Source: an uncultured virus (IMG/VR IMGVR_UViG_3300044846_004358)
Taxonomy: Duplodnaviria; Heunggongvirae; Uroviricota; Caudoviricetes
Direction: 5' to 3' (one strand)
IMG/VR virus record: IMGVR_UViG_3300044846_004358
Length of the DNA stretch: 64,000 nt
The notes beneath the pieces were generated by a model, which was not told the DNA's origin, made no database searches, and saw nothing but the letters and a program-made list of their open reading frames with translations. The stretch's first letter is position 1, and the number at the start of each line of letters is the position of its first letter. Below, piece after piece: positions 1,137 to 61,891 of the stretch. A program made the position numbers and the translations under genes.

Positions 1137-3260
1137 TTATTTTATGTTTATTTTCATTTTAGTACCAATATCATTTTTTTCACATGTAATTTCAAATCCG
1201 TGTTCTTCTAAAATTGCAACACAAATATTTAACCCTAATCCTGTACCACTCTCTTTTTGTCCTTCTTTTCTTGTATATGGTTTTGATAAATGGTCGAAAT
1301 CTTGTTGAGTGATTCCTCTACCATTATCTTGTATTATTAACAAATCCCCCTCCATAAATATTTTAACAAATTTCGTATCAGAATCGTTATATTTCAAACC
1401 ATTTCTTATCAGATTATCAATTGATGTACAAAACAATGACTCATTCACATCTTTAGTTATTAATTCCTCGATATGAACCTGACTTTTGTATGAGGTTGTT
1501 GTTAAGTAACTTTCTAAAATACTTTTTAGATTACATTCTGTTTTATTTAATACAACATCTTTTTTTACTAAGTTTGTAAATTCATAAACACCTTTATAAA
1601 CTTTTTGAGCATGGCTCAACCCATCTTTAATCATTTTAAATGGTGCTGTTATTTTTAACTCCTCTATTTGTTCAATAGTTAATCTTCGTTCTAATGAACT
1701 AACTCCCCTAGGTATGTATGTGTTAATACCTGAGTGCATATCGTGTCTTAGAATCTTTGCTGCGTGTTCTAAATAAGTGTTCTTTTTCTCAATTTCTATT
1801 GATTGTGTAATTCTATCAGTTATATCTGTTGCAATTTTCATTACTCTTTGTACTTTACCATCTATATCAAATACAGGATTATATGAAGCTTGAATCCAAA
1901 CTTTGTTTTTATCTTTAGTAAACCTTAAAAACTCATCAGTAACATATTCTCCACTTTTTAACAATTTCCAAAACTCTTTATATTCAGGAGATTTTGAATA
2001 TTCCTTTGAAACAAAAATCTTATGATGTTTACCTTTTAATTCTTTTTCTTCATAACCCATTTTTTCACAGAATAAACTATTAGCAAACATAATTTTACCA
2101 TCCAAATCAAACTCAATAACCATATTCGATGTATTAATAGCATTCATCCTATTTTTTATATCAATTTCTTTTTTCTTGACTTCTGTTACATCATATCTGA
2201 TTGACATATACCCCAAAAACTTACCATTTTCATCAAAATCACCTTTTATATATGAATCAACCCAATATAAGTTACCATTTTTATCCCTATTTGTAACAAT
2301 CTCATTCCAAATCTTTTTCTCAACGACAACATCTTTGTACATATTAGCCCAAAACTCCTTGGGATGTTTACCCGAATTAACAATACTATGGTCTTTTCCT
2401 CTTACTTCATCTAAAGACCATCCAGATACTTCCTCAAACTTTTTATTTACATATGTTATTCTACCTTTATTGTCCGCTTTAGAAACCAAAACAGATGTAT
2501 CAACAAACTTTTCGAACTCTTGTAAATTACCTCTCAAAATATTACTTTCTTTAACCGAATAAGCAAAAGAATATAGTGATGATAACATTTGAGCAAAGTT
2601 AACTTCTAATCCAATCCATTCCCTTAATGTTTTACTCTCAATACACACAACACCAATTACATCGCCTCTGTACATAATTGGAACATCCAACATAGATTTA
2701 ATACCAAGGGGTTTCAAATACCCTTCAACAAAACAATATGTTGCGGTATGAGTTTCAGCATTGTTTGCAATAATAATCGGATTGATTTCTAAGTGTTCAA
2801 AATAGGCGATAAAATCTTTTTTATACATTTCCGCCCCACTATACCATTCATCTTCTTTTTTAATATAAAGTTGTTGACAGATAATTGAGGTTTTATCTGA
2901 ATTATATAACCAAATTGAACATCTATCAGCATCAATTGATTCTGTTACTTCCTTTGTTAAAGTTTTTGCCCCATCCTTTACATTTCCTTGATAAAATAAT
3001 GAATTGTGTGATTGTGATATAAGAACTTTGTTAAGTTTTTTGGAGTATTGTGTTAATTTTATATTATGTTTTAATTTATTAGTATATTCTTTTACCAAGA
3101 TTGAAAAGAATGGTAAAAAAACAATAAAACAAGATAATTCAATTATTTTGATTAATTGTAGTGCGTCATTTATAAAAAATAATGAAATCATCTTCATTAT
3201 AAAGAAAATTGACATAATTAAAACTGAAAAGTAAATAGAAATTTTAACCTTGATTGACAT
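1137..3260 (-). CDS. Membrane-anchored GAF-PAS-PAS sensor histidine kinase
   Basis: Two N-terminal TM segments; GAF (ADRCSIWL, LGIKSMLDVPI, VIGVVC); two PAS/PAC (ITYVNKKF...YWVDSYI; VWIQASYNPV...DIT); H-box RHDMHS, N-box NLIRNGLKY, G1 DNGRGI, G2 GTGLGL. Confidence 0.93.
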   Translation of the reverse strand: MSIKVKISIYFSVLIMSIFFIMKMISLFFINDALQLIKIIELSCFIVFLPFFSILVKEYTNKLKHNIKLTQYSKKLNKVLISQSHNSLFYQGNVKDGAKTLTKEVTESIDADRCSIWLYNSDKTSIICQQLYIKKEDEWYSGAEMYKKDFIAYFEHLEINPIIIANNAETHTATYCFVEGYLKPLGIKSMLDVPIMYRGDVIGVVCIESKTLREWIGLEVNFAQMLSSLYSFAYSVKESNILRGNLQEFEKFVDTSVLVSKADNKGRITYVNKKFEEVSGWSLDEVRGKDHSIVNSGKHPKEFWANMYKDVVVEKKIWNEIVTNRDKNGNLYWVDSYIKGDFDENGKFLGYMSIRYDVTEVKKKEIDIKNRMNAINTSNMVIEFDLDGKIMFANSLFCEKMGYEEKELKGKHHKIFVSKEYSKSPEYKEFWKLLKSGEYVTDEFLRFTKDKNKVWIQASYNPVFDIDGKVQRVMKIATDITDRITQSIEIEKKNTYLEHAAKILRHDMHSGINTYIPRGVSSLERRLTIEQIEELKITAPFKMIKDGLSHAQKVYKGVYEFTNLVKKDVVLNKTECNLKSILESYLTTTSYKSQVHIEELITKDVNESLFCTSIDNLIRNGLKYNDSDTKFVKIFMEGDLLIIQDNGRGITQQDFDHLSKPYTRKEGQKESGTGLGLNICVAILEEHGFEITCEKNDIGTKMKINIK

Positions 3261-3334: not shown

Positions 3335-4138
3335 ATGTTAAAAATCGGTTCACAAGGAGAATTAGTTAAACAACTCCAAACAAAATTAGGCGTTACTGCC
3401 GATGGTGCATTCGGTCCTGGTACTGACAAAGCACTTAAAGAATGGCAAACTAAAAATGGTTTAGTTGCTGATGGTATTGCAGGTCCTGCAACACTTGAGA
3501 AAATGGGGGTATCTCTTCCAAAAGTCGAAAAAGAGACATTAAAATTGGACAAACTTAAAGGACAAATTCCTGATTCAGTAATCAATGAAATTAATGCCAA
3601 TGGTGAAAAGTTCGGTATTATCACGAATTTGAGATTGACACACTTTTTAGCACAATGTTCAACAGAATCAGGTAACTTCAAAGCTGTTAATGAGAATCTT
3701 AATTACTCAAAGGATGGTTTGATGAAAATTTTTCCAAAGTATTTTCCTGGTAACTTAGCTGAATCTTACGCTTATAAACCTGAGAAAATTGCATCTCGTG
3801 TTTATGGAAGTAGATTGGGTAATGGTGATGAAACAACTAAAGAAGGTTGGAAATATCGTGGAGCAGGTTTTATACAGTTGACAGGAAAAGACAACTTCAA
3901 AAAATTTGGTGAGTTTTTAGGTGAAGATTTAGTAACAAATCCAGACTTAGTTGCAACGAAATACCCTTTAACTTCCGCAGCATTCTTTTTCAATAGTAAC
4001 AATCTTTGGTCTGTTTGCGACCGTGGTACTGGTGAAGATGTTGTAACAGAAGTAAGTAGAAGAGTAAATGGTGGATTCAATGGTTTAGACCACAGAAAAC
4101 ACGAGTTCAAAAGATTCGAAAAATTACTTTTAGCTTAA
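3335..4138 (+). CDS. Endolysin: peptidoglycan-binding domain plus GH19 (chitinase-like) catalytic domain
   Basis: N-terminal LQ..LG..ADG.FG..T..A.K.WQ..NGLVADGIAGPAT; GH19 motifs HFLAQCSTESG, ENLNYS, YRGAGFIQLTG, RRVNGGFNGLDHR. Confidence 0.92.
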   Translation: MLKIGSQGELVKQLQTKLGVTADGAFGPGTDKALKEWQTKNGLVADGIAGPATLEKMGVSLPKVEKETLKLDKLKGQIPDSVINEINANGEKFGIITNLRLTHFLAQCSTESGNFKAVNENLNYSKDGLMKIFPKYFPGNLAESYAYKPEKIASRVYGSRLGNGDETTKEGWKYRGAGFIQLTGKDNFKKFGEFLGEDLVTNPDLVATKYPLTSAAFFFNSNNLWSVCDRGTGEDVVTEVSRRVNGGFNGLDHRKHEFKRFEKLLLA

Positions 4139-4918: not shown

Positions 4919-5899
4919 ATGAAAACAATTATTAGATTAACAGAAAATGATTTATACAAAATTGTTAAGAGAGTAATCTCAGAACAAGTAAGTGATGAAA
5001 ACAAAGCAGGAAATTACCTTAAAAATAGTGTCCCATATTCTTTCAAAGGTCTATTTCCAATAAGACCAGATGTACAAAGTGCAACAATAACCTTCGATAG
5101 AACCCTTGGTAACATACCATCACCTCAAATTACCAAACAACCTATCAATGTTGCAGGTATTGAAAATGGTGTTCATTTTTTTATTAAAGATGAATCAGAA
5201 AGTCTGAAGTCTTATTTGAACTCCGTTTTGACTATGAACCTAAATAGTCTTGCAGGAAAACTAACAATAAATGGACAACCTTTAGACCAAGGGAGACCAG
5301 TTGACGAACCAAATGTAGGACCTACTTTTTACACAATTAGTAATGAGTTTAATAAATTGATTGGTGACCTTTCTTCAGGATTAGGTTTGTCAGGAAATCT
5401 GAACCCAAACAACGTTATGACATTTGTTAATTCAGTACCATCTATGACTAGAGATGAATTAAATAATATTATGAGAGCTGTAGAAAGTTTCAGAAAAGCA
5501 TTCGGAAACTTCAAGACTGAGTTTGAAAAAAAGGGTGTTCAAGGACTTGATTTAGGTAAATTTTCTAACGTTGAAAAATATGGTCAAGCTTACTTTGGTG
5601 ATAAAATGCAAGTGTATCTAACATTACAAGTTGATGATACAGGTGATGACCAATTGGATTCTAAATATGAAACATTCCGTGATATGATTGGACAACAATA
5701 TTTGGAATTTGTAAAAAATGGAATAAAACAGAATAACATTTTTATACCTTCTTTAGAATCATTGTTTAAGGCGAGTCCAAGAATTAAAAACGAAATTGAT
5801 AAAGGCGGTATTGGGGGAATGAACAAACTAAATCCTAAAATAAGTAAACTTGTTGTTGTGGTTTATTCACCAAATCCTGGAGGTGTAGAACTTGCTTAA
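4919..5899 (+). CDS. Hypothetical protein with class-A leader (MKTIIRLTENDLYKIVKRVISE)
   Basis: 326-aa ORF; leader shared with 8 other genes. Confidence 0.8.
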   Translation: MKTIIRLTENDLYKIVKRVISEQVSDENKAGNYLKNSVPYSFKGLFPIRPDVQSATITFDRTLGNIPSPQITKQPINVAGIENGVHFFIKDESESLKSYLNSVLTMNLNSLAGKLTINGQPLDQGRPVDEPNVGPTFYTISNEFNKLIGDLSSGLGLSGNLNPNNVMTFVNSVPSMTRDELNNIMRAVESFRKAFGNFKTEFEKKGVQGLDLGKFSNVEKYGQAYFGDKMQVYLTLQVDDTGDDQLDSKYETFRDMIGQQYLEFVKNGIKQNNIFIPSLESLFKASPRIKNEIDKGGIGGMNKLNPKISKLVVVVYSPNPGGVELA

Positions 5900-6733: not shown

Positions 6734-7111
6734 ATGAGAAGAACTGTAAGATTAACTGAAAGTGATTTAGTTAAATTAGTAAAAAGAGTAATCAGTGAAC
6801 AAGCAACAAGTTGTATGGAACCATTACAATCTCATTTAGAGGGTATGATGAACTTAGGTCCTAATTTCAAAGAAGGCCAAAAGAAACCATATAGAGATTT
6901 GCTTATTCAAAATTGTAGTGCTCTTGAAAGTTACATAAAAAGTAACCCTAATGTACAATTTGGTACAGAAACATTAAAAGCAAATAAGACAGCATTTGCA
7001 TGTGTAACTTCTGTTAATTTTGGCAACAAAGAAGAGGATAAAGATATGGCTGTTGCTTTAGCTAAAGTTGGGGCTTTTGTAAATTGTGTAAAAGGTTCTG
7101 GTGGTAAATAA
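6734..7111 (+). CDS. Hypothetical protein with class-A leader (MRRTVRLTESDLVKLVKRVISE)
   Basis: ORF with leader; TATTTAT at 6687-6693. Confidence 0.8.
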   Translation: MRRTVRLTESDLVKLVKRVISEQATSCMEPLQSHLEGMMNLGPNFKEGQKKPYRDLLIQNCSALESYIKSNPNVQFGTETLKANKTAFACVTSVNFGNKEEDKDMAVALAKVGAFVNCVKGSGGK

Positions 7112-12781: not shown

Positions 12782-13273
12782 ATGTTTTTTATCAAAAAAT
12801 ATGAGTTTTATATAAAACTTAGTGTTATTATACTATCAATAATACAACCATTTATTCTTTTGTCAATATGTGGTGAATTATGGTCTTTATCAAGTTATTG
12901 GAGAACACCACTTCAACCAATGTTCATAATAATAAACGCAGCCACAAGTTACTTCTTCTTTAGTACAGACAAATGGTTGGTACCTTCGATTCTGTTATTA
13001 CTTCTGACTGCGTTTTCTTTAGACCTATACCCAACAACACATAATATTATTGCAGGTCTTTTCTTTCTCTCTTGTTCCTATCCTCTTATGACATTAAAAA
13101 GATTCCAATTTTTTGGTATTCTTTATTATATGTCAATATTTGTATTGTTGTATTCAGGTATGTTGTGGTTCGAGATTTATTGTGTTTTAATACTGGGGTC
13201 ATACCATCTTACAATACTTTTATATAAACATCATTTAGATAAATTAAGAGAAGAATCACATAACAAATCATAA
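12782..13273 (+). CDS. Polytopic membrane protein
   Basis: Five to six hydrophobic segments. Confidence 0.7.
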   Translation: MFFIKKYEFYIKLSVIILSIIQPFILLSICGELWSLSSYWRTPLQPMFIIINAATSYFFFSTDKWLVPSILLLLLTAFSLDLYPTTHNIIAGLFFLSCSYPLMTLKRFQFFGILYYMSIFVLLYSGMLWFEIYCVLILGSYHLTILLYKHHLDKLREESHNKS

Positions 13274-13863
13274 CTTTGATTAATTTGATGTTTAATAATC
13301 AATTCATCATAACGCCATAACTCGTATTTTTCTATAACCATACCAATGTGTTTCCAATATTCACCAAATCCATAACCTTTACAATGATTTGTCCAATATT
13401 TCCAATTTTTACCAACAGCGTGTTTGTAATATTTCTTAAGAAATAAAGCATGGTCTTCAAATGATTCAGAGAAACTTTCATACTTTCTCCATTTTGTTCC
13501 ACCCAAAGATACATAATAATCACCATCGTACAATTCTTTATAATACTTCATACCGAATAGATTATTTGCATTCTTTGCAATTGGTGAATACCCACCCCCA
13601 CTTTCAGCTATCGCTTGTGCTAATTGAACACTTGTAGGTATACCATGTTCTAAGTGATAGTACATTGCAATTTCGTGGTAATTATCACAAAATTTACTAT
13701 ACGGGTGTTTTCGATTTATTTTCACCTTGTTTGATAATTGTATTGCTACAACATCATTGTGAACTTTCTTTTCAACCTCCGAAGAAACTGAAATTTTTTG
13801 TGGACTATTAGAATCCAAGGAAACCAACAAGAACCACAAAATGATTGCAATTATCTTTTTCAT
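13231..13863 (-). CDS. GH73 glucosaminidase (FlgJ-like) with signal/anchor sequence
   Basis: GIPTSVQLAQAIAESG, NNLFGMK, WRKYES..ESFEDH. Confidence 0.85.
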   Translation of the reverse strand: MKKIIAIILWFLLVSLDSNSPQKISVSSEVEKKVHNDVVAIQLSNKVKINRKHPYSKFCDNYHEIAMYYHLEHGIPTSVQLAQAIAESGGGYSPIAKNANNLFGMKYYKELYDGDYYVSLGGTKWRKYESFSESFEDHALFLKKYYKHAVGKNWKYWTNHCKGYGFGEYWKHIGMVIEKYELWRYDELIIKHQINQSYDLLCDSSLNLSK

Positions 13864-14411: not shown

Positions 14412-15098
14412 TTAGGATATAAATAAATTGTATTCTTGTTCTCTTCTATTTGCTAATCCCTCTGTTGTACCAATATAAAAAGTTTTCACAAGTTCAGCAG
14501 CTTTTTTTGTATTACCTTTTTTTAGTTCTTGTATAAATCTAGATTTTCTCATACTTGTACATCCAGCATTGAATGTCATTGAAACCATAGCATCAAATTG
14601 TCCTTGAGTTAATTTATAAGTTTTTAAATCATTTTTTTTCCATTCATCCATTATTCGTCTGATACAACCAATAGCATCGCCAGAATCTTGAACCAAAAAA
14701 TCTTCAGCTTGTTTTTTGGTTATTTTCATACCAACCCTAACACCATCGGTATGACCATATCCAATCGTTGGTATTCCCCTTGAGTCAAGATATCCTACCA
14801 ACTTAGGTTGTTTTACCCCACCAATTCTATTTGCTGCGTCACCCTCCCATTCTCTAACTATTTTTTTGTAATCATTTGTTATATTCATAACAGAACCATC
14901 CATCAATTGTTTCCCACTAATTTTCTGTGGTTCAGGATTGGCAATACCTTTTGGTTTTACCTTTTTTGTTGTTTCTATTTTTTTCTGAGAAGGTCTTTGA
15001 ATCCCCACCATTTTATATGGGTCAGTTATATTTCCAATCGTTTTATTTACTTGTTGTAAAATATTATCGTATTGTTGTTCAGTAATTATAATTTTCAT
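14412..15098 (-). CDS. GH24 phage lysozyme with class-D leader (MKIIITEQQ)
   Basis: WEG...YLDSRGIPTIGYGHT, QGQFDAMVSMTFNAG, GLANRREQE. Confidence 0.88.
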   Translation of the reverse strand: MKIIITEQQYDNILQQVNKTIGNITDPYKMVGIQRPSQKKIETTKKVKPKGIANPEPQKISGKQLMDGSVMNITNDYKKIVREWEGDAANRIGGVKQPKLVGYLDSRGIPTIGYGHTDGVRVGMKITKKQAEDFLVQDSGDAIGCIRRIMDEWKKNDLKTYKLTQGQFDAMVSMTFNAGCTSMRKSRFIQELKKGNTKKAAELVKTFYIGTTEGLANRREQEYNLFIS

Positions 15099-20264: not shown

Positions 20265-20882
20265 TTAAACCAACCTTCTAATTATTTCTCGTATCTTGGC
20301 TTCAGATATATTTGTACCTCCACCATCCAACTTATCAGTAAAACCTTTCAACTTATCAAATGCTGGATGAGAAGATATTGGTTCTTTTTTTGCATCCTTC
20401 ATAACATCCCAAGTTGATGGCTTAATCTTCATATGGTTTTTAACCAAATATTTTATTTCATCAACATCAGTTCCTTCATAAGATTCAACCCAATCTCTAA
20501 ATTGTTCAACATATTTTTCTGATTTATCTTCATGTCCATATGCGGTAGGTTCTCCTGTCTTAGGATTAATTCCATAGGTATCCATTTTACCCAAATCATG
20601 AAATAATGCGGTCATTATCATATTGGGGTCATCAGGATAATGATGATACGCCCTCTTGATTACAACCAAAATATGTTTTAATGAATTACCCTCAGGATGC
20701 CATTTTGGATTCTGTTTTGCATCCCATTGTTTGAATAATAATTCTTTTAATTCTTGGGGTAAATCATCATATAATTCTCTATACGATTTTGGAAATTCTT
20801 TTTTGTTTTCTTCCATTTCATTTATTGTTTGTTTAACCAAACTTAATAAATCTCTTTCAGTTAGTCTAATTATTTTTTTCAT
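20265..20882 (-). CDS. HD-domain phosphohydrolase with class-A leader
   Basis: QNPKWHPEG..LKH, ALFHDLGK, GHE, NHM; resembles the HD domain of CCA-adding enzymes. Confidence 0.82.
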   Translation of the reverse strand: MKKIIRLTERDLLSLVKQTINEMEENKKEFPKSYRELYDDLPQELKELLFKQWDAKQNPKWHPEGNSLKHILVVIKRAYHHYPDDPNMIMTALFHDLGKMDTYGINPKTGEPTAYGHEDKSEKYVEQFRDWVESYEGTDVDEIKYLVKNHMKIKPSTWDVMKDAKKEPISSHPAFDKLKGFTDKLDGGGTNISEAKIREIIRRLV

Positions 20883-21499: not shown

Positions 21500-21934
21500 T
21501 TATAATAACCCCATTATCGATTTAATCTCCATCTTCAATTTATCAAAATCAGGCATCTTAAAATAACCCTGCCATACCAATGTCTTCCCATTCTCCATAT
21601 TCATTGTCGTACCCACTCCATTAATTAATTTCTTTGACAGTTCAACATTAGATGTGGGACTAGTAACAAACAAACGATATGTACTCTCATCATCAACAAT
21701 CTTAGGTCCAACCTTCAACTCTAATTCCCCACCATTCTTACCCTTATAATATAATTGATTGTTGACAAAAACCATCCCCAATTCCTTACCAATCTTTTCC
21801 ATATCAATCTTACCTTGAAAGGTGGGAACACCAGGAGGAGCTTGGTCAATATACAAATCAACATTCTGCTCAGAAATTATTCTATTTACCAATTTAATTA
21901 ATTCACCCTCTGTTAATCTTATAATTCTTTTCAT
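21500..21934 (-). CDS. Hypothetical protein with class-A leader
   Basis: MKRIIRLTEGELIKLVNRIISE; TATTTAT motif at 21949-21955. Confidence 0.8.
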   Translation of the reverse strand: MKRIIRLTEGELIKLVNRIISEQNVDLYIDQAPPGVPTFQGKIDMEKIGKELGMVFVNNQLYYKGKNGGELELKVGPKIVDDESTYRLFVTSPTSNVELSKKLINGVGTTMNMENGKTLVWQGYFKMPDFDKLKMEIKSIMGLL

Positions 21935-40796: not shown

Positions 40797-40883
40797 AGTT
40801 GTTTTTTTACAAAAGTAAGGAATAGTTTTTATTTTTTCTAATCTAAGTGATATTTATTTAAAAATAAAACTCAAAAAAAAACA

Positions 40884-41180
40884 ATGAAAAAGATAGTAAG
40901 ATTGACTGAAAGAGATTTAACTAGATTGGTTAAAAGAGTAATCAAAGAGGATGAAGAATCTATGAAGAGTTATAAAAAAATGTTAAGTAAAATTGAATCA
41001 GATTTGGATAAAGATGAATCAGATTTGGATGAAATTCAAAATAAACTTTATGATTTTGATAACTTAATTTGGGATGAAGATACCTTAGATGAGGATGAAA
41101 AAGAAAAATTATCATATTATATTGGTGAGTTACTTAAAAGATGTGTGAAACCTAAAAATAAAGGATTTGGTAAATTTTAA
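40884..41180 (+). CDS. Acidic hypothetical protein with class-A leader
   Basis: MKKIVRLTERDLTRLVKRVIKE; TATTTAT at 40851-40857. Confidence 0.8.
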   Translation: MKKIVRLTERDLTRLVKRVIKEDEESMKSYKKMLSKIESDLDKDESDLDEIQNKLYDFDNLIWDEDTLDEDEKEKLSYYIGELLKRCVKPKNKGFGKF

Positions 41181-41218: not shown

Positions 41219-44047
41219 TTAGAACTTGTGACTTACACCAAATGTAAATGTCACACCAGGATTGACTGAATTGAATATTTGTTTTTCAGCTTTATATGAT
41301 TGATAAAAACTTTCCACTCTATCATTAAGAATATTTTGTACTCTAAAATCTATTGATGTATTCTTAATCTTTTGACTTACAGATAAGTTTAATGAGTGAA
41401 ATGGTTCATCATAGATATCAGGTGATAATCCTGTTCCAACGATGGATAATGTTTGTCCTTTAACATTATAAAACACACCCACATTTAATCCAATCTTTTC
41501 GACATTATAAGATAACCCAGTATTAATAACAAATGGTGATTGTCCGGCCATAACTCTGGTATTGTTTATGTTCTCACCATCTCTTTCATATTGTTTCCTT
41601 GCTTGGTATTCTGTCTCTGTCATTGTTATTTTGGATTGAGCAATGGTGACATTGGTATTGAAAGAAAAGTTCTTTAGAAACGATTTTCTTAACTCAAACT
41701 CAATTCCATATAAATCCCCATTTCCAACATTCCTTGGTTGATATTCCGTTGATGTTTGTTGTTCAGGTATTCTTACCAATTCAATTGGGTTATTAAAGTG
41801 TTTATAAAATCCTGATACAGAGTAAAAATCCTTATCTTTGGCCAACTCCCATCTCAAATCCAAGTTATCAATATTCGTTTCTCTTAGATTACCATTCCAA
41901 GTTCCGTTATAACTGAATAAACCTCCATTGAATATTCTATTTGTGATTGGGTCTAATATTTGAGCATAAGACATTTCCTTGAATGATGGTCTGGCAATTG
42001 TTCTGTTATATGATAATCTAAGATTTTGTTTTGGGGTTATTGAATAGATTAAGTTAGTAGATGGAAATAAATGAAATGTATTTAATACAATATCATTTTT
42101 AAGATTGTTTCCATTCATATCACCATTGGCATATCTTATATCTCTTCCTGTATGTCTTTGGATAAAATATTCAGCTCTTAATCCACCATTAATTTTGAAT
42201 CTATTTTTAATATTATATTCACCTGAAACATATACACCAGTGTTATTCACATTTGATGAATATTGATTTGGGTTTGGGTTAACATTACCAGATTGAATAT
42301 ATGTTCCATTAATCTCACTTGGATATAAGTTTTCCGTACTCATAACAAGATTTGGGTCTGGTGTTGTCCAAGATTGCGGTTTGGAAAACATCAATTCATA
42401 TAACTTGATACTATAATCTCTTAACTTATATGAATGTGATACACCAAAGTTTAATTTGAAGTTATTAAATTGTTTGGATACATCAACTTTAACATTATTG
42501 TTAAACTCACTTAAGTTTCTCCATATCCTTGATGGATTACCAGCTTCACCAGATGAGAATGTATATGTTCCATCATAACTGAATGGTGTCTTTCTAATAT
42601 CAGGGTCAACTGATGAAGAATAAGTTGGGGATAATTTCCAATCAACATTCCAATCATTGATGTTATGTTTTCCACTTAATAATAAATTGGTTAAACCTCT
42701 TTGGTTATATTCCAAGTTATATGATTTGGCTTCATAACCTGATTGTCCAACGGCATTTGAGTTGTTAGTTATATTGAATACACCTGCTCTACTTTCCCCA
42801 CTCTGTAAATGAATAAGATTTAGTTTGTATTTACTCTTACCTTTGGTATAGTTAAACCCAACTAATCCACCCAAGAAGTTATTAATCTCAGTAAGTTGTC
42901 CTGATTGTTTGGTTGCATATATCAATTCATTCTCATTATGATTTGATGACCTTTGATATTCACCATACTTTACATCAGTATAAAACTTGTAATCAGTTTT
43001 ATGATTGATTGATAAGATATATCCAAAGTTCTTATTTGTTTTACCATAAGATATACCACCACCGAAATCAATCATACTTAAATCAGTTGTAGCCCCTAAT
43101 ACAGGATTCAATCTGTTTAACAAATTGACTATGTTTTGTTGATGTTGTGTTGAACTGATATTTGATGGTTTGTTAAATGGGGTTGGGATATAACTTCTAT
43201 TCAATTCGTCAGGTAATCTTCTTAAACCACCATCAAATCCCAATATATCAGTCGCTGAACCTTTTTCACTTATGAAGTTGGGATTGAAGTGAACTTGGGG
43301 ATTATAACCTAATGATAATGAGAAAGAACCTTGACTTGTTTCAGGTATATCTTTTGTTTCCACATTAACCAATCCACCAGTAAAATCAGCAGGTAATTCA
43401 GGTGAAAAACTTTTTGATACGACAATATTATTCAGTAAATTGGTTGGGAAGATATCCATCTGTAATGAGTTTCTATCTGGGTCTAAACCTGGTATTTCAA
43501 TTCCATTTAATAATGTCTTGGAATATCTATCACCCAATCCTCTTACATAAACATATTTACCACTTTCGACTGAAACTCCTGTAACTCTTTTACTTGCATC
43601 AACCGCATTATTGTCACCAGTACTTTTCATTTTCTCAGAACTGATACCATCCAATAAGATATTGGATTCCATTTTCATATCAATTAATGCTGTTTCATTT
43701 TTTACAATCCTATCAGCTGTAATCACAACTTCACCTGTCTGTAAAATATCTTCTTTCATATAGATATCAGGCAAACTTGTCAGGTCACCAACTAGTGAGA
43801 TTTTTTCTATTGTAATCTTTTGATATGATATATAGGAAAACACCAAATCAATCGTGTCCAATTCTGTTGTAATTGAAAATGTTCCATCAAAATCGGTAAT
43901 CACACCTGTTGATGTCCCCTTTATAATAATTGTTACACCAACCAAAGGTTCTTCAGTTGTTGCATCAATTACTTTACCAAATAATACATTTTGTGAATAA
44001 GAGAGGAGGGGAAGTAAAACGAATAATAACGATAATAATGTTTTCAT
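41219..44047 (-). CDS. TonB-dependent outer-membrane receptor (Bacteroidota type, N-terminal carboxypeptidase-regulatory-like domain)
   Basis: Signal peptide; GKVID..T.EPL.GV.I...GT..G..TD.DG.F; plug RVTGVSV...YVRGLGDRY; beta-barrel; C-terminal Phe. Confidence 0.92.
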   Translation of the reverse strand: MKTLLSLLFVLLPLLSYSQNVLFGKVIDATTEEPLVGVTIIIKGTSTGVITDFDGTFSITTELDTIDLVFSYISYQKITIEKISLVGDLTSLPDIYMKEDILQTGEVVITADRIVKNETALIDMKMESNILLDGISSEKMKSTGDNNAVDASKRVTGVSVESGKYVYVRGLGDRYSKTLLNGIEIPGLDPDRNSLQMDIFPTNLLNNIVVSKSFSPELPADFTGGLVNVETKDIPETSQGSFSLSLGYNPQVHFNPNFISEKGSATDILGFDGGLRRLPDELNRSYIPTPFNKPSNISSTQHQQNIVNLLNRLNPVLGATTDLSMIDFGGGISYGKTNKNFGYILSINHKTDYKFYTDVKYGEYQRSSNHNENELIYATKQSGQLTEINNFLGGLVGFNYTKGKSKYKLNLIHLQSGESRAGVFNITNNSNAVGQSGYEAKSYNLEYNQRGLTNLLLSGKHNINDWNVDWKLSPTYSSSVDPDIRKTPFSYDGTYTFSSGEAGNPSRIWRNLSEFNNNVKVDVSKQFNNFKLNFGVSHSYKLRDYSIKLYELMFSKPQSWTTPDPNLVMSTENLYPSEINGTYIQSGNVNPNPNQYSSNVNNTGVYVSGEYNIKNRFKINGGLRAEYFIQRHTGRDIRYANGDMNGNNLKNDIVLNTFHLFPSTNLIYSITPKQNLRLSYNRTIARPSFKEMSYAQILDPITNRIFNGGLFSYNGTWNGNLRETNIDNLDLRWELAKDKDFYSVSGFYKHFNNPIELVRIPEQQTSTEYQPRNVGNGDLYGIEFELRKSFLKNFSFNTNVTIAQSKITMTETEYQARKQYERDGENINNTRVMAGQSPFVINTGLSYNVEKIGLNVGVFYNVKGQTLSIVGTGLSPDIYDEPFHSLNLSVSQKIKNTSIDFRVQNILNDRVESFYQSYKAEKQIFNSVNPGVTFTFGVSHKF

Positions 44048-47209: not shown

Positions 47210-48910
47210 TTACTTCTTTATCATTGTTTGGATTGTCTCGTGTAAGGATGATAGGTGTTTTATCCTTATGGTATATTTTCCTGATGGAATATTGGAGGTA
47301 TTAATCGAAACATAATTTCCACAAGTTTGACAACTTACATTATATTGAAATACTTTCTGTCCTAATATATTAATGACTTGTATCTCCAATTCTTCATTTT
47401 GTTCACTTTCGTAAGTATAAATTAATGAATCTTCAAATGGGTTGGGATAAACTTTGGATTCTATTTGGTTTTTTGTTTCTAAATAAATGATTGAGGAATA
47501 TGAAAAGGTTTCATCTAAATCTACCATTTTTAATCTATAATAATTTGAACCACTATAAGGTGAGTTATCTATAAAGTTGTAACTTTTGGATGGGTCAGTT
47601 TCCACAATACCTATTTTAATAAAATCATATCCATTGTTACTTCTCTCTATTTCAAAGTGTGAACTATTAATTTCTTGTTCTGTTAACCAGTACAAATGAT
47701 TTTCTCTACCTTCATTGTGACCATCAAAGGTTGCTAAGTAAATTGGTAATATACAATTGGGGTCAACAAAAACATTTACCATTGCTCTTGAACTAATACA
47801 ACCATTCAGTTCCGCCTCAGCATAAAATGGTGTATTATTAAGTAAGGGCGATGTTGTATAACTATATCCAGTACCTAACAATGTTCCACTTGTTGAAGCA
47901 TCGTACCATTGTAATGTTCCAATATTTGATGAACCATATAACACAGCAAAATCACTTGGACATATTGTAGTATCAGGATTTAATGTTGGTATATTTGGTA
48001 TTGGTTTAACCACAACATTAGTTGAAGAGGTTGAACTACAAGTATTTCTCGTACCCAAACCATTAATCATACCATTGTATGTACCAGTTACAGAATATGA
48101 TGTTGTTGAGGTGGGTGTAAATGAAACACCATTAGATATACCACCATCCCAAACATAAGTATTAGCGCCTGATGCCGTTAATGTGGTTGGTGTACCATCA
48201 CATACACTATTAACACCATTTATTGTAATTGTTGGTGTTGGTATTATTTCGATAAGTTCAACATTATCAATCCAAAACTCTTCACCAGCTGAATTGGCAC
48301 GACAATATAAATCCACAGCAACCTGAGTGATGTTTGGTTGTAGATTCAAAGTAATTGTGGAAGGGCCAGTTGTTGTTGCTCCCGCTGGTGCCTGATAAAC
48401 ATCACCAGTTGGTGCTGCTGAGTTTGTGAATGTTCCGTTTGCTGTATGTGTAATTGTACCTGTTGAAGTATATGGCCAAGTAGCATTTGAGTTACCAGTT
48501 ATTCTTAATTCTGTCACATAAGAAACACCCCCATTTGTTGAAACTTGAACACTCAAATAATCTGCAACATCTAATCCTCTAGTTGTTGCAGTAGAATTAG
48601 AAAAGGTATAAGAAGCTAATCTAAACTTTAGTTGATATGAATATGCGGGATTTAATCCGGTAATATTAGGTAGAGAATACCAATCTTGTTCAATTGCTGA
48701 AGTACCATTACCTGAACCATAAATTACAGCACTAATATTTGCCGATACTGAAGCATTCGTAAAAAAACCAGTAGTTAAAGCTGGTGTCCACCAATCACCG
48801 AACCAAGTAAAGGTTTCCATATTGTCATAATAAACGGTGGATGTACAAGATTGTGTATAAACATTAACACTGAATAACACAGAGAGAATAAACAATAATA
48901 TTTTTTTCAT
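47210..48910 (-). CDS. Secreted Thr-rich Ig-like protein with T9SS type-A C-terminal sorting domain
   Basis: Signal peptide; Ig-like repeats (C.G...TLTASGA.TY.W); LPI.L..F...W.T.QE.N...F.IERS; KVYPNPF...INILGQ...PSGKYTIRI...IKK. Confidence 0.88.
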   Translation of the reverse strand: MKKILLFILSVLFSVNVYTQSCTSTVYYDNMETFTWFGDWWTPALTTGFFTNASVSANISAVIYGSGNGTSAIEQDWYSLPNITGLNPAYSYQLKFRLASYTFSNSTATTRGLDVADYLSVQVSTNGGVSYVTELRITGNSNATWPYTSTGTITHTANGTFTNSAAPTGDVYQAPAGATTTGPSTITLNLQPNITQVAVDLYCRANSAGEEFWIDNVELIEIIPTPTITINGVNSVCDGTPTTLTASGANTYVWDGGISNGVSFTPTSTTSYSVTGTYNGMINGLGTRNTCSSTSSTNVVVKPIPNIPTLNPDTTICPSDFAVLYGSSNIGTLQWYDASTSGTLLGTGYSYTTSPLLNNTPFYAEAELNGCISSRAMVNVFVDPNCILPIYLATFDGHNEGRENHLYWLTEQEINSSHFEIERSNNGYDFIKIGIVETDPSKSYNFIDNSPYSGSNYYRLKMVDLDETFSYSSIIYLETKNQIESKVYPNPFEDSLIYTYESEQNEELEIQVINILGQKVFQYNVSCQTCGNYVSINTSNIPSGKYTIRIKHLSSLHETIQTMIKK

Positions 48911-51087: not shown

Positions 51088-51618
51088 TCACACCTGAGGG
51101 TTTTTTTTATCATACTGATATAACTTGTACTTTTTAATAATCGATGTCAATGTATTTGTATATGTATTCGATGTTGCATATCCACACCTTTTAAGATTTC
51201 TAACCCAACATTTCCAATCATCCCCACACTCTCTACATCTCTTATATCTCTTTCCCATCAGGAACTGAGAATGGTCACGGAAACTATACCAATTACTTTC
51301 ATAAACCTTAAACCTGTCAGTTGGTTTATCATCAGCAAACCTTTTGGAGTTTTTATAATTACATCCACTAAAACACTTAATACCAAAATGATTGTTGGTT
51401 TTCTTGGTTAGGTCAGATTGACCACTCCTCGATTCCAATATACCCTGAGCCAGAGTAACAGATGCGGGAATACCAAACTTCTTGTGTTCGTAAACTGCAA
51501 CCTTTTTGAACCTATCAATGTATTGTTCAGTTGGTGTTAACTTCTTTTCAACAACTTTTTTAGGTTTTAGATATGGAATAAATAAAAGGAGGGGAATAAA
51601 ATAAATAATTCTTTTCAT
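51088..51618 (-). CDS. GH73 glucosaminidase (second copy)
   Basis: GIPASVTLAQGILES..G, NNHFGIKC, SFRDHS, GYAT; TATATTTG motif at 51642-51649. Confidence 0.9.
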   Translation of the reverse strand: MKRIIYFIPLLLFIPYLKPKKVVEKKLTPTEQYIDRFKKVAVYEHKKFGIPASVTLAQGILESRSGQSDLTKKTNNHFGIKCFSGCNYKNSKRFADDKPTDRFKVYESNWYSFRDHSQFLMGKRYKRCRECGDDWKCWVRNLKRCGYATSNTYTNTLTSIIKKYKLYQYDKKNPQV

Positions 51619-51673
51619 ATCGTGTAAGTTTGGTTCTTTCACAAATATAAAAAGAATTAGTTAAATTGGAAAT

Positions 51674-53845: not shown

Positions 53846-54664
53846 TTATTTCAATGAAGAAAATATATGAGAAATTACATCCACAGTCCAACCATTACCA
53901 ATCATCTTATACCTTTCAGTATTATTAACCACAGAGGTATATCCTTCAGGTATTGTTTGCAATCTCTCAAACTCATCAGCGGTCAATAATCTACATAAAC
54001 TTTTATCCTCATTGAACAAATACTGATTGGTATGACAATTTTTGGTGGTTAAACAATTTGATTTGTCATTACATACCCAATTCACTCCCTTCTCAATTCT
54101 AGGTTTGTTTCCCCACTTATTATAAAAACATTTTGGTATTTCTCTGAACTCTGAATTACCCAACACATCATTCAATTTGATATTTCTATTTTCTGGTTGA
54201 GTTACATTAGGAATATTTGTCCAATATAATCTTTCTCTGTTTTGAGCTGATACCAAATTACTATTAATTGAAATTGGTTCAACTCCCATCTCTTTTGTTA
54301 TGATGTCTTCCCATTCCTTTTTCATCTTAACATTTTCTAATAGAAAATATTTGGGTTTAACTTCATTCAATATTCTTACATATTCCCAAAATAATCCACT
54401 CTTTCCATCAAATCCTGTTCTATTACCAGCAGATGAAAAACTTTGACAAGGACTACCACCAAATAATAAATCAATACTAGGTAAATCACTACCTTTGATT
54501 TTGGTAATGTCACCAAGTTGAATTGTATTTGGATAGTTGTGTTGGGTTACTTTAATTGCGTGCTGGTCAATCTCTGAAGCATAATAGTTGTCATATTTTA
54601 TTCCAACTTTGTTTAATGCTATTTGACCACAGGACATTCCATCGAAAAGGCTCAGTATATTCAT
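53846..54664 (-). CDS. C5-cytosine DNA methyltransferase
   Basis: LSLFDG, EID, GGSPCQ, LENV, Q.RER.YW, ERLQT, GNGW. Confidence 0.92.
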   Translation of the reverse strand: MNILSLFDGMSCGQIALNKVGIKYDNYYASEIDQHAIKVTQHNYPNTIQLGDITKIKGSDLPSIDLLFGGSPCQSFSSAGNRTGFDGKSGLFWEYVRILNEVKPKYFLLENVKMKKEWEDIITKEMGVEPISINSNLVSAQNRERLYWTNIPNVTQPENRNIKLNDVLGNSEFREIPKCFYNKWGNKPRIEKGVNWVCNDKSNCLTTKNCHTNQYLFNEDKSLCRLLTADEFERLQTIPEGYTSVVNNTERYKMIGNGWTVDVISHIFSSLK

Positions 54665-54701
54665 AATGGAAAATATAAGAAATAATCTTCATAAAAAAAA
54701 G

Positions 54702-54730
54702 AAACCCCACCTTTTTTTGAGATGGGGATT
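54702..54730. terminator. Intrinsic terminator (CCCCAC family)
   Basis: AAACCCCAC...ATGGGGATT. Confidence 0.65.
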
Positions 54731-54741
54731 TTTTCTTAAAC

Positions 54742-55191
54742 TTAAAAAGTCATAGTACCTAAAAAATTTTTATCGTTATCATACAAATTAACACTTTGTA
54801 GATTACCTGCACTCCATGCTCCTTTTACCCCTCCCCATTTCCAAACACCATTATAATATGGAACATTTTTTTTAGATACCCAATTTGCTAAATATTGTAA
54901 CTCAACCACAGGTCCGTTGTATTTGTCATCATTAGGCATTATAGTTGTTTCCATAACAACTTCATTCTTATCAGAAAAAAACCTAATGTTCCCATTTCTA
55001 GTATCATATTTCCAAGTTCCTTGGGGGCAATATCTATCCCAAGGGTCCGTTGGTTCTGGACATTCATTTTGTTTATTCATTGCCCATTTTTTAAAATCTT
55101 CTAAAGTTTTTCCACTTATTGATTGTTCGTTAATTACTCTTTTAATCAATCTAACTAAATCACTTTCAGTTAATCTTACTATCTTTTTCAT
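54742..55191 (-). CDS. Hypothetical protein with class-A leader
   Basis: Start moved to MKKIVRLTESDLVRLIKRVINE. Confidence 0.8.
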   Translation of the reverse strand: MKKIVRLTESDLVRLIKRVINEQSISGKTLEDFKKWAMNKQNECPEPTDPWDRYCPQGTWKYDTRNGNIRFFSDKNEVVMETTIMPNDDKYNGPVVELQYLANWVSKKNVPYYNGVWKWGGVKGAWSAGNLQSVNLYDNDKNFLGTMTF

Positions 55192-55586
55192 CGTTTTTTT
55201 TTCAATTTTATTAATATTAATCCGTTTTTCAAATATTTTTCCATCCACATTTTTTGGATTCTATTTTCGTTGAAGAATGGCCAAGAAATATTATTGCTGT
55301 CATCTATGAACGTATGTACTTTTCTAATTAATGTCATGTCCCTATCGTCTTCATTAAGTTTTATTATATCAACATTTTCATTATTAAAGAATTTAAAGGC
55401 ATCTTCAATTTCAGGATAATCTGACAATTTTACTTTTTCATCATTTTCATTAAACATTGTATTCGGACCATACCAATCTGGAATATAATAAAAATACTCG
55501 TATTCATTCATATTTCTTTTTTCATTAATAACTCTTTTAACCAATCTAACTAAATCACTTTCAGTTAATCTTACTATCTTTTTCAT
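55188..55586 (-). CDS. Hypothetical protein with class-A leader
   Basis: MKKIVRLTESDLVRLVKRVINE. Confidence 0.8.
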   Translation of the reverse strand: MKKIVRLTESDLVRLVKRVINEKRNMNEYEYFYYIPDWYGPNTMFNENDEKVKLSDYPEIEDAFKFFNNENVDIIKLNEDDRDMTLIRKVHTFIDDSNNISWPFFNENRIQKMWMEKYLKNGLILIKLKKKR

Positions 55587-56025
55587 CTTTTTTTATTTGT
55601 TTTTCTATTTCAGAATATATCAGTTTAATCATTTTAAAATAAAATTCATCTGTTTTATTTTGGTCTGTCATATTGTTAATTATGTTATATAATATATTTG
55701 CATAATAATCTTTTTCAATAAATTCATACGTTATATCATCAATGGCTGAATCAATCCGCCTATATTTTTTTTCTTTCATTACAGAATGTACTTTTTTTAC
55801 CCACCACTTGAAGTCACCTTCTTTAACTATTTTATCTAAAATTAAGTCCAAAACTTTGTCTTCCAAATCTAATGTTTCACCTAATTGTAATGCCGTTTCA
55901 AATTGTTCATTGTCAATTAATATCTTGAATTTTTCAAGATATTCTTCGTTTTCATCTTGTTCTTTAATTATCCTTTTAACCAAATTAGTTAAATCACTTT
56001 CTGTTAATCTTACTATCTTTTTCAT
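55561..56025 (-). CDS. Hypothetical protein with class-A leader
   Basis: MKKIVRLTESDLTNLVKRIIKE; TATTTAT motif at 56054-56060. Confidence 0.8.
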   Translation of the reverse strand: MKKIVRLTESDLTNLVKRIIKEQDENEEYLEKFKILIDNEQFETALQLGETLDLEDKVLDLILDKIVKEGDFKWWVKKVHSVMKEKKYRRIDSAIDDITYEFIEKDYYANILYNIINNMTDQNKTDEFYFKMIKLIYSEIEKQIKKDEKDSKIN

Positions 56026-56182
56026 CGTTTTTTTTTCAATTTTATTTTATAAAAATAAATATCTCATATAAATAAAAAAACCCCAACAAATTTCTACATT
56101 TATCGGGGTTAAGATATATCGACCAACATAAGAAAGGGAAGTTGGGTTGTGAATATAAATATATCAATATTTACAAAAAGTA

Positions 56183-56569
56183 TCAAAAAATTTTATTAAT
56201 TATAAAAAAAAGTTGTTTTTCAACATTATCAGGCAAGTTTTTTTTATTAAACCACCCACATTCATCGTGTTCGTGACCATCCATAGCCTCATCCAAATCA
56301 ATCTCGACCTTTCTTGAAATCTCATACATAAACAAATAATACTTCATTCTACCCCCACCAGTCAATGTTGCCAAATATTTCAAATCACCCAATATCACCA
56401 ATCCTGTCTCCTCACTAAACTCTCTAATAGCACCATTTTCAACACTCTCACCTTTCTCCAAATGACCACCAGGTACAGACCATACACCAGGTAAACTACT
56501 CTTCTGACTTCGTTTACATAATAAACATTGATTTTTATATTTTAATAAGATACCAGCACAATTTCCCAT
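56183..56569 (-). CDS. NUDIX hydrolase
   Basis: WSVPGGHLEKGESVENGAIREFSEETG Nudix box. Confidence 0.92.
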   Translation of the reverse strand: MGNCAGILLKYKNQCLLCKRSQKSSLPGVWSVPGGHLEKGESVENGAIREFSEETGLVILGDLKYLATLTGGGRMKYYLFMYEISRKVEIDLDEAMDGHEHDECGWFNKKNLPDNVEKQLFFIINKIF

Positions 56570-60546: not shown

Positions 60547-60792
60547 TTATATTTTTTTTACTTCTAATTTAACTTCTTCCCAATATTTGTAATGTAATTC
60601 TCTATCTGAGAATATTAGTTGCATTTTGGATAATTCATCCAAGTGAAGGTTAATTGATAACAACACACACTGCTTGATTAATTCTTTTCTAATATGACGA
60701 TTAATTACAGAGGATATCTGGTGTAGTCCTTCCTTATTAAAGGTGTGGAAGAGCTCTTGTGCCATATCTTGGGGTGGGATGTTGTTTTCCAT
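60547..60792 (-). CDS. Hypothetical protein
   Basis: 81-aa ORF ending YWEEVK.E. Confidence 0.7.
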   Translation of the reverse strand: MENNIPPQDMAQELFHTFNKEGLHQISSVINRHIRKELIKQCVLLSINLHLDELSKMQLIFSDRELHYKYWEEVKLEVKKI

Positions 60793-60844
60793 TTTATATA
60801 GTTGTATTTGTTGATATTGTTCTTGGATATATTACTGGGTTGTG

Positions 60845-60991
60845 CTATACAATCAGACACCCCAATATTATCATAACACTTACTATCATAGTTAACATCA
60901 TTAATATAATAACATCCCCATTTGTTACATAAGGTTCATAAAATTGTCCTCCTTCACCTTTGTCAAGCCACTTTTTAATTTTGTTACACAT
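60845..60991 (-). CDS. Small single-TM peptide (48 aa, not in ORF track)
   Basis: Hand translation MCNKIKKWLDKGEGGQFYEPYVTNGDVIILMMLTMIVSVMIILGCLIV. Confidence 0.45.
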   Translation of the reverse strand: MCNKIKKWLDKGEGGQFYEPYVTNGDVIILMMLTMIVSVMIILGCLIV

Positions 60992-61071
60992 TATTTGATA
61001 ATTGTTCTAATTTTTTTTATAAAATTCATTAATAATACCATAAATTTCTGAACTATTGGGTATCAAAACTA

Positions 61072-61565: not shown

Positions 61566-61664
61566 TTAATTGTTTTCTGTGGTTATTAAATCGTGAAGCC
61601 CTTCCTTATTGAAACGATGGAAGAGCTCTTGTGCCATATCTTGGGGTGGTATGTTGTTTTCCAT
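61566..61664 (-). pseudogene. Truncated duplicate of 60547..60792
   Basis: MENNIPPQDMAQELFHRFNKEGLHDLITTENN*; 48 bp with one mismatch to 60746-60793. Confidence 0.65.
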
Positions 61665-61891
61665 TATTTGATAATTGTTCTAATTTTTTTTCTTTTGAAC
61701 CAATCAACATATGATGTAGCCTCTTCAAGAGTTATAAATTGATAATTAGTGTTTATCCACGGCATAAAGAAAAATATTTTCTTTTCTATTTCATATCTTG
61801 TTACAAAGTATACTTCAGGTATAAAATCTATTTTAGCCTCATAATTCTTCGTTATTTGAGGTGTTTCAACTTTTACAATTCTGTATTCCAT
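61664..61891 (-). CDS. Small hypothetical protein
   Basis: 75-aa ORF. Confidence 0.65.
   Translation of the reverse strand: MEYRIVKVETPQITKNYEAKIDFIPEVYFVTRYEIEKKIFFFMPWINTNYQFITLEEATSYVDWFKRKKIRTIIK

Follow-up and report, generated by a model that had tools for sequence, protein, structure and literature searches.

Why do neighbouring genes of an uncultured phage begin with almost the same DNA and then continue into unrelated proteins? Three such genes lie in tandem in a 64,000-nucleotide stretch (the window; all positions below are window positions unless another record is named) of the IMG/VR virus record IMGVR_UViG_3300044846_004358, a member of the Caudoviricetes. A preliminary description of the locus regarded the leader DNA as a homology handle, by which cargo open reading frames (ORFs) are inserted, swapped, or lost. 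This cassette-shuffling interpretation is partly supported by the analysis reported here. The recombination mechanism is not new in kind, as it has already been described for the T4 ip loci and for the promoter-early stem-loop (PeSL) cassettes: T4 ipIII and ipII have the same kind of flank and leader identity, and repeated cassettes are a known handle (PMC2839356). What is new is the peptide tag encoded by the leaders, which is non-homologous to the capsid-targeting sequence (CTS) of T4, longer, also found inside proteins, and present on thousands of clusters of ORFan proteins.

The three tandem genes, all on the minus strand, are gene A (55561..56025, 154 amino acids), gene B (55188..55586, 132 amino acids), and gene C (54742..55191, 149 amino acids). 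Each consists of a tag (55957..56025, 55518..55586, and 55123..55191, respectively) and an ORFan cargo, which is all-helical in A and Trp-rich in C. Their 36-nt start, ATGAAAAAGATAGTAAGATTAACnGAAAGTGATTTA, is exactly the same at 56025, 55586, and 55191, and recurs with two mismatches at 40884 on the plus strand, where gene D (40884..41180, 98 amino acids) starts behind a related flank, AATAAAACTCAAAAAAAAACA. These four matches compare with none in 100 shuffles. A 21-nt flank, AATAAAATTGAAAAAAAAACG, is found in two exact copies (shuffle mean 0.01), both on the minus strand. The first copy is non-coding and precedes gene A (56026..56046), and the second lies inside the 3′ end of gene B, just before gene C (55192..55212), and encodes the gene B tail IKLKKKR. 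The stop codon of gene B overlaps with the ATG of gene C, and the final 26 nt of gene A overlap leader B in another reading frame. Counted from the A of the ATG, the longest identical runs are 44 nt between A and C (−21 to +22), 46 nt between B and C (−1 to +44), and 24 nt between A and B. The cargos are unrelated: with the first 25 residues cut, none of the 28 pairs of tagged proteins in the window reached a BLASTP E-value below 0.07. Thus, the preliminary description was right about the shared start, the duplicated flank, the copy in gene D, and the unrelatedness of the cargos.

What does the leader encode? It was found that the tag, with the 22-residue consensus MKKIVRLTESDLxRLVKRVIxE, opens eight ORFs in the window and not just the four described before. 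The other four are at 6734..7111 (plus strand, 125 amino acids), 4919..5899 (plus strand, 326 amino acids), 21500..21934 (minus strand, 144 amino acids), and 20265..20882 (minus strand, 205 amino acids); the last has an HD-domain cargo (Pfam HD, E 9e-5). All eight fit the pattern M-[KR]-x-[IT]-[IV]-R-L-T-E-x-[DE]-L-x-x-[LI]-V-[KN]-[RQ]-x-I-x-E, with M1, R6, L7, T8, E9, L12, I20, and E22 invariant. A ninth copy is internal to a protein in the full record of 98,377 bases (G000). With the first 40 residues of gene A as a query, 140 proteins with the same tag on unrelated cargos of 84–270 amino acids were retrieved. A profile of the eight tags, searched against 1.84 billion cluster representatives, matched 7,364 at E≤1e-3 and 387 at E≤1e-10. 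Among the best hits (268 proteins), 256 of 302 tags are N-terminal and 39 are internal. The internal copies keep LTESDLxRIVKRVIxE but not the first five residues, and 17 of the 25 listed have no Met at model position 1 (P0121, P0123, P0126, and P0129, for example). In 250 unique tags, which as best hits are biased upward, L7, T8, and E9 are conserved at 96, 94, and 99%, and I20 and E22 at 95 and 99%. Conservation ends abruptly after residue 23, where a polar, acidic linker begins.

I also observed that some of the proteins P0121–P0137 and P0248 have two or three tags, with an unrelated domain behind each. Such proteins resemble fused cassettes, or polyproteins separable by a tag-directed protease.

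The tag is viral, since it is nearly absent from cellular genomes. A degenerate pattern of the tag DNA occurs in only four stretches of 185,579 prokaryotic species genomes (one genome each), and two of these four are on a single contig with phage head genes. One of the four, in a gut Bacteroidaceae metagenome-assembled genome (MAG), is the variant TRLTESDLHRIVKRSVNKVLRE. On a 61,524-base contig of a Bacteroidaceae gut MAG, a gut tag variant, MAKKQVTRLTESDLHRIVKRSVNKVLRE, opens a gene (L023:580-684), and the tag family may extend to gut Bacteroidales phages.

Database searches gave few names. No Pfam family covers the tag, and a Pfam scan of 182 tagged proteins gave eight weak matches, two of them over the cut-off (GNAT and an annexin repeat). 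Full-length relatives of cargo B were found only in its own lineage (five loci, 100% identity). For cargo C, a word-based search of 5.8 billion proteins returned no cluster but its own, P0269, and tblastn gave no match in 50,697 GenBank phage records. In the same phage records, tblastn queries of 30–35 residues of the tag returned nothing, or one weak match at E 7. A look-up of the tag in the ESM Atlas gave only unnamed viral clusters below a useful score. A Foldseek comparison of a structure model of gene A with the PDB yielded nothing at E≤0.001. In full-text literature, the tag peptide strings occurred only in a single unrelated paper of 1972, and a search for CTS-like sequences in metagenomes and T4-like phages found nothing on the tag. 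One tagged protein of 112 amino acids (P0048) resembles the antirestriction family ArdA, but below the threshold (22.7 bits, cut-off 27).

Which phage carries the tag array? Its gene content and relatives are best explained by a lake-water jumbo myovirus of the T4 type with a genome of roughly 300 kb. Record G000 was estimated by CheckV to be 33% complete at 98 kb; the genome should therefore be near 300 kb. The locus is contained in 20 lake-water metagenome runs. G000 has genes for lysis, nucleotide metabolism, methylases, homing endonucleases, and DnaK, and it is collinear with a larger relative, G007 (240,759 bases, 82% complete), with 38 of 136 ORFs matched in the same order. In G007, Portal_T4 (1.6e-75), Peptidase_S77 (1.9e-26, 93 bits), and Gp23 (2.8e-72) were detected, along with a terminase, an acidic scaffold-like protein, a tail sheath, and a baseplate wedge; none of its head-module proteins resembles the tag. 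Peptidase_S77 is the family of the T4 prohead protease gp21. It was above the cut-off in nine of ten further tag-bearing records (84–272 kb), the lone miss being 49% complete, and the tag-bearing contig G006:C9 has both Peptidase_S77 and gp23. The tag-bearing related records have 2–13 tags each, often in tandem. From these relatives, the phage of G000 probably has a T4-type head.

Two neighbouring ORFs of record G003 may encode head-core components. One encodes an extremely charged, low-complexity protein of 532 amino acids with an internal tag-like stretch, IIKLTENEIVDLIESLVNEQ; it lies at L018:857-2455 and is cut at the start of G000. Its upstream neighbour (L018:142-834, 230 amino acids) has a weak match, at 21 bits, to the N-terminal part of the Gp23 profile.

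What, then, is the tag for? In T4, the first ten residues of IPIII are the CTS, which brings internal proteins into the prohead core and is removed afterwards, and the internal proteins of T-even phages are diverse except for this sequence (PMC9026906; PMC3012670). The protease gp21 cuts after Glu in L/I-X-E (PMC9026906). The tag can be read as a capsid-targeting propeptide of the same type on several grounds, beside the T4-type head genes of the relatives. First, its invariant residues make up two L/I-x-E motifs, L7-T8-E9 and I20-x-E22, in all eight tags of the window. Second, L-K-E44 and I-N-E60 of the G007 capsid protein lie at the maturation site of T4 gp23, as judged by aligning residue 72 of the G007 protein to residue 28 of mature gp23. 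Third, in an AlphaFold 2 model of gene A (mean predicted local distance difference test score, pLDDT, 80.6), the blocks of the tag score 64–68 and most cargo blocks 78–91, and residues 1–8 are coil or extended, with a helix from residue 9; a tag modelled with less confidence than the cargo and with an extended beginning would fit a detachable appendage. I give this reading an even chance. If it holds, the tag would dock the cargo to the prohead core, and a gp21-type prohead protease would cut it off after Glu9 (L-T-E), Glu22 (I-x-E), or both. In this way the head would receive a changing set of small proteins, which would probably be delivered together with the DNA. A complex prediction of the gp21-type proteases of G007 and G006 with the tag scored 0.00, which is evidence neither way.

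The T4 system, represented by the internal proteins IPI, IPII, IPIII, and Alt and the polymorphic ip locus of T-even phages, is the nearest comparison. In T4 (AF158101), nudE, e, ipIII, ipII, and denV follow one another on one strand, and the array here is likewise tandem, on one strand, and downstream of a NUDIX gene. The window NUDIX protein resembles T4 NudE at 33% identity over only 58 residues, and it is therefore not claimed that the two loci are positional homologues. T4 ipIII and ipII have 47 identical nt, from 17 nt upstream of the ATG through MKTYQEFIAEA, followed by full divergence. As in the array (44 nt for A–C and 46 nt for B–C), neighbours have identical flank and tag DNA and unrelated cargos. 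In both systems a short N-terminal peptide ending in L/I-x-E stands on otherwise unrelated small proteins, and cargo content varies among relatives, as reported for T4 (PMC3012670; PMC9026906). The relatives of this phage also have homologues of gp20, gp21, and gp23. However, between the T4 CTS MKTYQEFIAE (IPIII, IPII) and MKKIVRLTE, only M-K and the final [LI]-x-E are shared; thus, the tag is an analogue and not a homologue of the T4 CTS. At 22 residues instead of 10, it offers two candidate cut sites, and it is helical with a strongly basic character. It opens eight genes in 64 kb and stands on 2–13 genes in each related record, in contrast to about four CTS genes in T4. Unlike the T4 CTS, it also occurs inside longer proteins and extends over thousands of protein clusters, and its packaging and cleavage are proposed by analogy.

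Several observations weigh against the capsid-targeting reading. In sequence, the tag is unlike the T4 CTS. The residues after both Glu are mostly Ser and Gln, in contrast to Ala in both T4 CTS copies. No capsid, portal, or protease gene was found in G000 (98 kb, 33% complete) or in the related records G001–G003, and the co-occurrence of tag and Peptidase_S77 may simply reflect one phage clade. The heptamer TATTTAT, a putative promoter, precedes nine of ten tagged genes in G007 versus 76 of all 262 ORFs. It is upstream of the terL, portal, protease, scaffold-like, and sheath genes there, but it also precedes the DnaB and DHH genes; it is therefore no marker of virion genes. Finally, the conserved stretch comprises the whole of residues 6–22, which is longer than a cleavage site requires.

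The last of these points would suit a real protein module that serves a different function: it could be a helix for docking to, or oligomerisation in, some other machine of the phage or the host, or a basic amphipathic helix binding membranes or nucleic acids. Such a module would not be packed into the capsid and would have the same cassette dynamics. The helix of residues 6–22 is indeed basic and amphipathic, with conservation over its full length, and internal copies stand between the domains of longer proteins. In G007, the tagged genes are found among the small ORFans of a variable region that is far away from the head genes, and their upstream TATTTAT is not specific to structural genes. 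On the other hand, the residues invariant in the window are exactly those of two L/I-x-E motifs. The tag is nearly confined to viral contigs, of which the large enough ones encode a gp21-type protease, and T4 is a worked precedent of the same gene architecture. Weighing both sides, I consider another job rather unlikely.

Does the leader DNA itself act as a handle? The preliminary description stated that leader identity extends to synonymous and non-coding positions. Leaders A, B, and C use the same codon at 15–18 of 17–20 same-residue sites, versus 8.5–10.2 expected from the codon usage of the genome (z 3.1–3.7). Leader D is intermediate (z 1.8–2.6). Pairs among the leaders at 6734, 4919, 21934, and 20882 gave z-values of −1.0 to 1.7, so that four of the eight window leaders have the codon identity expected from protein constraint and codon bias. 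Leader C versus the leader at 6734 reached z 3.1, and the latter is at chance level versus those at 21934 and 20882. As an empirical scale, 104 tags from 68 other viral loci of five kb each were compared. Codon identity at the level of the trio was found in only 1.5%, and an identical 21-nt flank in only 0.7%, of 5,214 between-locus tag pairs, and only 5.7% of the within-locus pairs reached the trio level. Mean codon identity in these loci was 0.71 within and 0.61 between loci (Mann–Whitney p 7e-9, for pairs that are not independent). The excess codon identity of the trio therefore points to recent shared DNA ancestry, less clearly for gene D. Across the family, leader identity is mostly the outcome of protein constraint and codon bias. 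Thus, the statement holds for the trio and for the 21-nt flank of A and C, and constraint with codon bias, which had been named as an explanation that would refute the handle, falls short in the trio and mostly suffices elsewhere.

If leaders serve as handles, related genomes should differ by cassettes with breakpoints inside leader DNA, as the preliminary description suggested. To compare them, 15 related loci were gathered via the neighbouring gene for a 557-amino-acid DHH-like protein. Seven of them reach through the array and have a gene A like that of the window: five have A-B-C (L001, L003, L005, L006, and L014) and two have A-C (L013 and L015). Loci L002 and L004 end within gene A. The unit absent from L013 and L015 is a 395-nt cassette of exactly one repeat period (55203..55597, minus strand), whose endpoints can slide within the shared run. 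As drawn, it starts 11 nt upstream of the ATG of gene B, takes in leader B and cargo B, and stops 12 nt upstream of the ATG of gene C. The blastn blocks of these two loci cover window positions 57260-55518 and 55202-51251, with the same 80 nt of the locus contained in both blocks. At the junction, the B-type upstream flank (the 3′ end of gene A) is followed by a leader, which has C-type bases from the first site that distinguishes B from C. Of a 47-mer of flank and leader, the three-gene contigs have two copies and the two-gene contigs one, and cargo B is nowhere on the L013 and L015 contigs. The junction sequence thus places the crossover within the 46 nt common to leaders B and C. As to direction, it could be a deletion from three genes, or a circular B cassette with a hybrid flank and leader could have been inserted into leader C.

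The orthologues of gene A were also observed to end differently, with KKDEKDSKIN, KKYEKDSKIN, or KKLNDENPHI (P0003, P0008). The DNA that follows gene A is read as its tail, so a different gene probably lies downstream of the one for P0008.

The other indels tell another story. In L007, a block of genes A, B, and C, a C5 methylase gene, and an ORF of 81 amino acids is absent, and in L012 six untagged ORFs are found in its place. The junctions lie after the terminator of the NUDIX gene and before the next conserved gene, and no leader is involved. A breakpoint of L007 at the ATG of leader A was considered and rejected; it reflects a chance A/T-rich similarity, and the true junction is after the terminator. 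Between G007 and G008, the three events examined in detail break in the terminator, the promoter, or the A-rich flank, or at ATGAAAAA, but not clearly in the tag. Only one single event thus maps inside leader DNA, and typical tandem leaders elsewhere are barely more alike than unrelated leaders. Both observations count against the leader as a general handle. The proposal of leader breakpoints is borne out by L013 and L015, but L007 and L012 and the three events in G007 and G008 do not support it as a general rule.

Nevertheless, tagged genes are hot spots of turnover. In four relatives (G007–G010), they were kept in only 1–4 of 6–10 cases, versus 58–87% of the other ORFs of the region. Homology blocks end within −90 to +75 nt of 26 of 32 tagged starts and of 92 of 225 other starts (naive Fisher p 2e-5, with counts that are not independent). 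The leaders are not the sole breakpoints and perhaps not the main ones.

Can ordinary evolution explain this without any special handle? In that case, a single recent local duplication or gene conversion of flank and leader produced the trio, gene content changes through the boundary mosaicism usual in phage genomes, and the loss of B was a one-off deletion between direct repeats. The block indel of L007 and L012 and the flank breakpoints of G007 and G008 agree with this, as do the four leaders at chance level, the small share of within-locus pairs that reach the trio level, and the 41% of ordinary gene starts that also coincide with block ends. However, the B junction lies inside the shared 46 nt, tagged starts coincide with block ends at a higher rate and tagged genes are gained and lost more than their neighbours, and two or more tags are present in 22 of the 68 five-kb loci, with an excess of synonymous identity within loci. 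I therefore find it doubtful that the leader has no special role as a handle.

What seems to be exchanged is a larger unit than the leader, consisting, in order, of a terminator hairpin, TATTTAT, an A-rich stretch, the tag, and the cargo. This is indicated by the event breakpoints in the flanks or at ATGAAAAA, and by the presence of a GC hairpin and TATTTAT ahead of many tagged genes (gene A and several in G007). In the window, the array adjoins a NUDIX hydrolase gene upstream (56183..56569, minus strand; PHROG NUDIX families, E 9.6e-22). A terminator-like hairpin with a 13-pair stem and a T run (56079..56110, minus strand) closes this gene and opens the array; it is also kept in L007 and L012, both of which lack the array. 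The promoter-like TATTTAT is upstream of gene A (56055..56061, minus strand) and also of gene D (40851..40857, plus strand). A second terminator-like hairpin (54705..54727, minus strand) closes the array. Since there is a hairpin on each side and, within the trio, TATTTAT is before A only and absent before B and C, the three genes look like one transcription unit. Homologous recombination of the phage would use leader patches and intergenic flanks to delete, insert, and duplicate cassettes, and the trio would be a recent product of such recombination, with flank and leader copied before C.

Is the two-gene form real? An assembly artefact of the repeated leader, with no natural polymorphism, must be considered, since the repeat of 46 nt is exact and only two metagenome assemblies have shown the two-gene form. 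In addition, no Logan contig bridges a leader: the k-mer contigs of four lake-water runs break at every leader, spanning 54300-55176, 55183-55571, 55558-56032, and 56017-56500, and the contig joints listed have short sides or come from other tagged genes such as D. No bridging contig thus speaks for either form. However, L013 and L015 are on contigs of 120,655 and 91,045 bases from different metagenomes and have an identical junction. Their lineage is about 5% diverged from the window around the junction and has its own base just before the ATG. Because two assemblies of such a diverged lineage agree, an assembly error is very improbable, and the absence of cargo B and the single 47-mer in these contigs argue further against it. 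It is hardly credible that the conserved 5′ sequence acts on the mRNA as a signal for translation start or stability with the peptide incidental, as the A-rich stretch before the ATG and the AAA/AAG-rich first codons might suggest, because distant leaders differ at synonymous sites and keep the peptide, the same peptide is found in genomes from different habitats, and the 39 internal copies, most of the listed ones without the first-position Met, retain the motif.

How does a cassette with a tag compare with other exchangeable units? The PeSL cassettes of phages RB49 and phi1 are repeated stem-loop and promoter units extending up to the ATG, which border the ORFans of hyperplastic regions. Among close relatives, entire ORFan cassettes are present or absent, and ORFans are deleted, inserted, or circularised by crossovers between the units (Arbiol et al. 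2010, PMC2839356). The difference of the B cassette, with a crossover in a repeated unit, is of this kind, and PeSL exchange needs no dedicated integrase; the L007/L012 block is a counter-example to such a crossover. Unlike in PeSL, the repeat here runs about 45–70 nt into the coding sequence as a peptide tag, and the motif is TATTTAT, a presumed promoter, rather than a sigma-70 consensus.

In the giant phages phiKZ, 201phi2-1, and SPN3US, head and ejection proteins have propeptides cut by gp21-like proteases. These phages pack many proteins into the head, and the cleavage is after Glu in a short motif, often at several sites per propeptide (PMC9026906). The capsid-targeting reading of the tag resembles this in having jumbo phages with many packed proteins, cleavage after Glu in a short motif, and several candidate sites. 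In contrast to the phiKZ-like group, T4-type gp23, gp20, and gp21 are detectable with Pfam in the tag-bearing group. The phiKZ-like propeptides are not known to be one shared peptide.

Integron cassettes are also arrays of exchangeable, promoter-served single-gene units, mostly of unknown function. Integrons require an integrase and attC sites, and their cassettes have no shared coding tag. The exchange of tagged cassettes, unlike that of integrons, appears to rest on plain homology. General Pfam (25) and PHROG (54, overlapping) scans of the window ORFs gave no integrase family, and no search was aimed at an integrase or attC.

Some further features of the region were noted. The window contains Bacteroidota-type genes in the part of G000 without a counterpart in G007: a TonB-dependent receptor with CarboxypepD_reg (41219-44047, minus strand), a protein with a C-terminal sorting domain of the type IX secretion system (47210-48910, minus strand), and a GAF/PAS histidine kinase (1137-3260, minus strand). 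They may point to a Bacteroidota host, or else the contig may be chimeric. A full DnaK/Hsp70 is encoded outside the window (L017:1349-3280; about 83.7-85.7 kb of G000:C1) and is 68% identical to the DnaKs of uncultured phage records of 634–642 kb; G007 has no match to it. The idea that the phage DnaK reads the tag was dropped, as the tag is in none of the three largest huge-phage records searched that share a similar DnaK (635–735 kb). A fourth such record (484 kb) has only weak tag matches. Four genes like those of peptidoglycan hydrolases or endolysins are found in the 64 kb (3335-4138, plus strand; 13231-13863, 14412-15098, and 51088-51642, minus strand). Direct repeats of 41–86 nt with 86–90% identity (60721-60805 versus 61593-61678; 60978-61018 versus 61651-61691) lie among small ORFs upstream of a thymidylate synthase gene and may be another repeated intergenic unit.

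What do these results mean for this group of phages? The locus is a natural example in which the gain or loss of one tagged gene can be traced to a crossover in tag DNA. It supports an older idea, proposed for PeSL and the T-even ip loci, in which shuffling in the plastic regions of T4-type genomes is organised by short conserved 5′ modules. Loading of arbitrary proteins into a phage head has its textbook case in the T4 CTS, and the T4 internal proteins include an injected anti-restriction factor. Tentatively, and at somewhat less than even chances, the two halves of the argument can be joined: the RLTESDL tag may be the address label of a very large, hitherto undescribed pool of small proteins that are packed into the capsid and injected, a pool kept in flux by exchange of promoter-tag-cargo cassettes through tag DNA. 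Its carriers would be uncultured jumbo phages of the T4 type in lakes and the oceans, and gut phages of Bacteroidales would have a variant of the tag. The pool would comprise at least 7,364 clusters, almost all ORFans, and would work like an integrase-free effector integron. If this is true, injected host-takeover and anti-defence proteins could be read straight from metagenomes, and the tag could be used to load foreign proteins into such capsids. If the tag acts as a CTS, thousands of proteins of uncultured jumbo phages become probable virion cargo, and a route to injected effectors from sequence only would be available.

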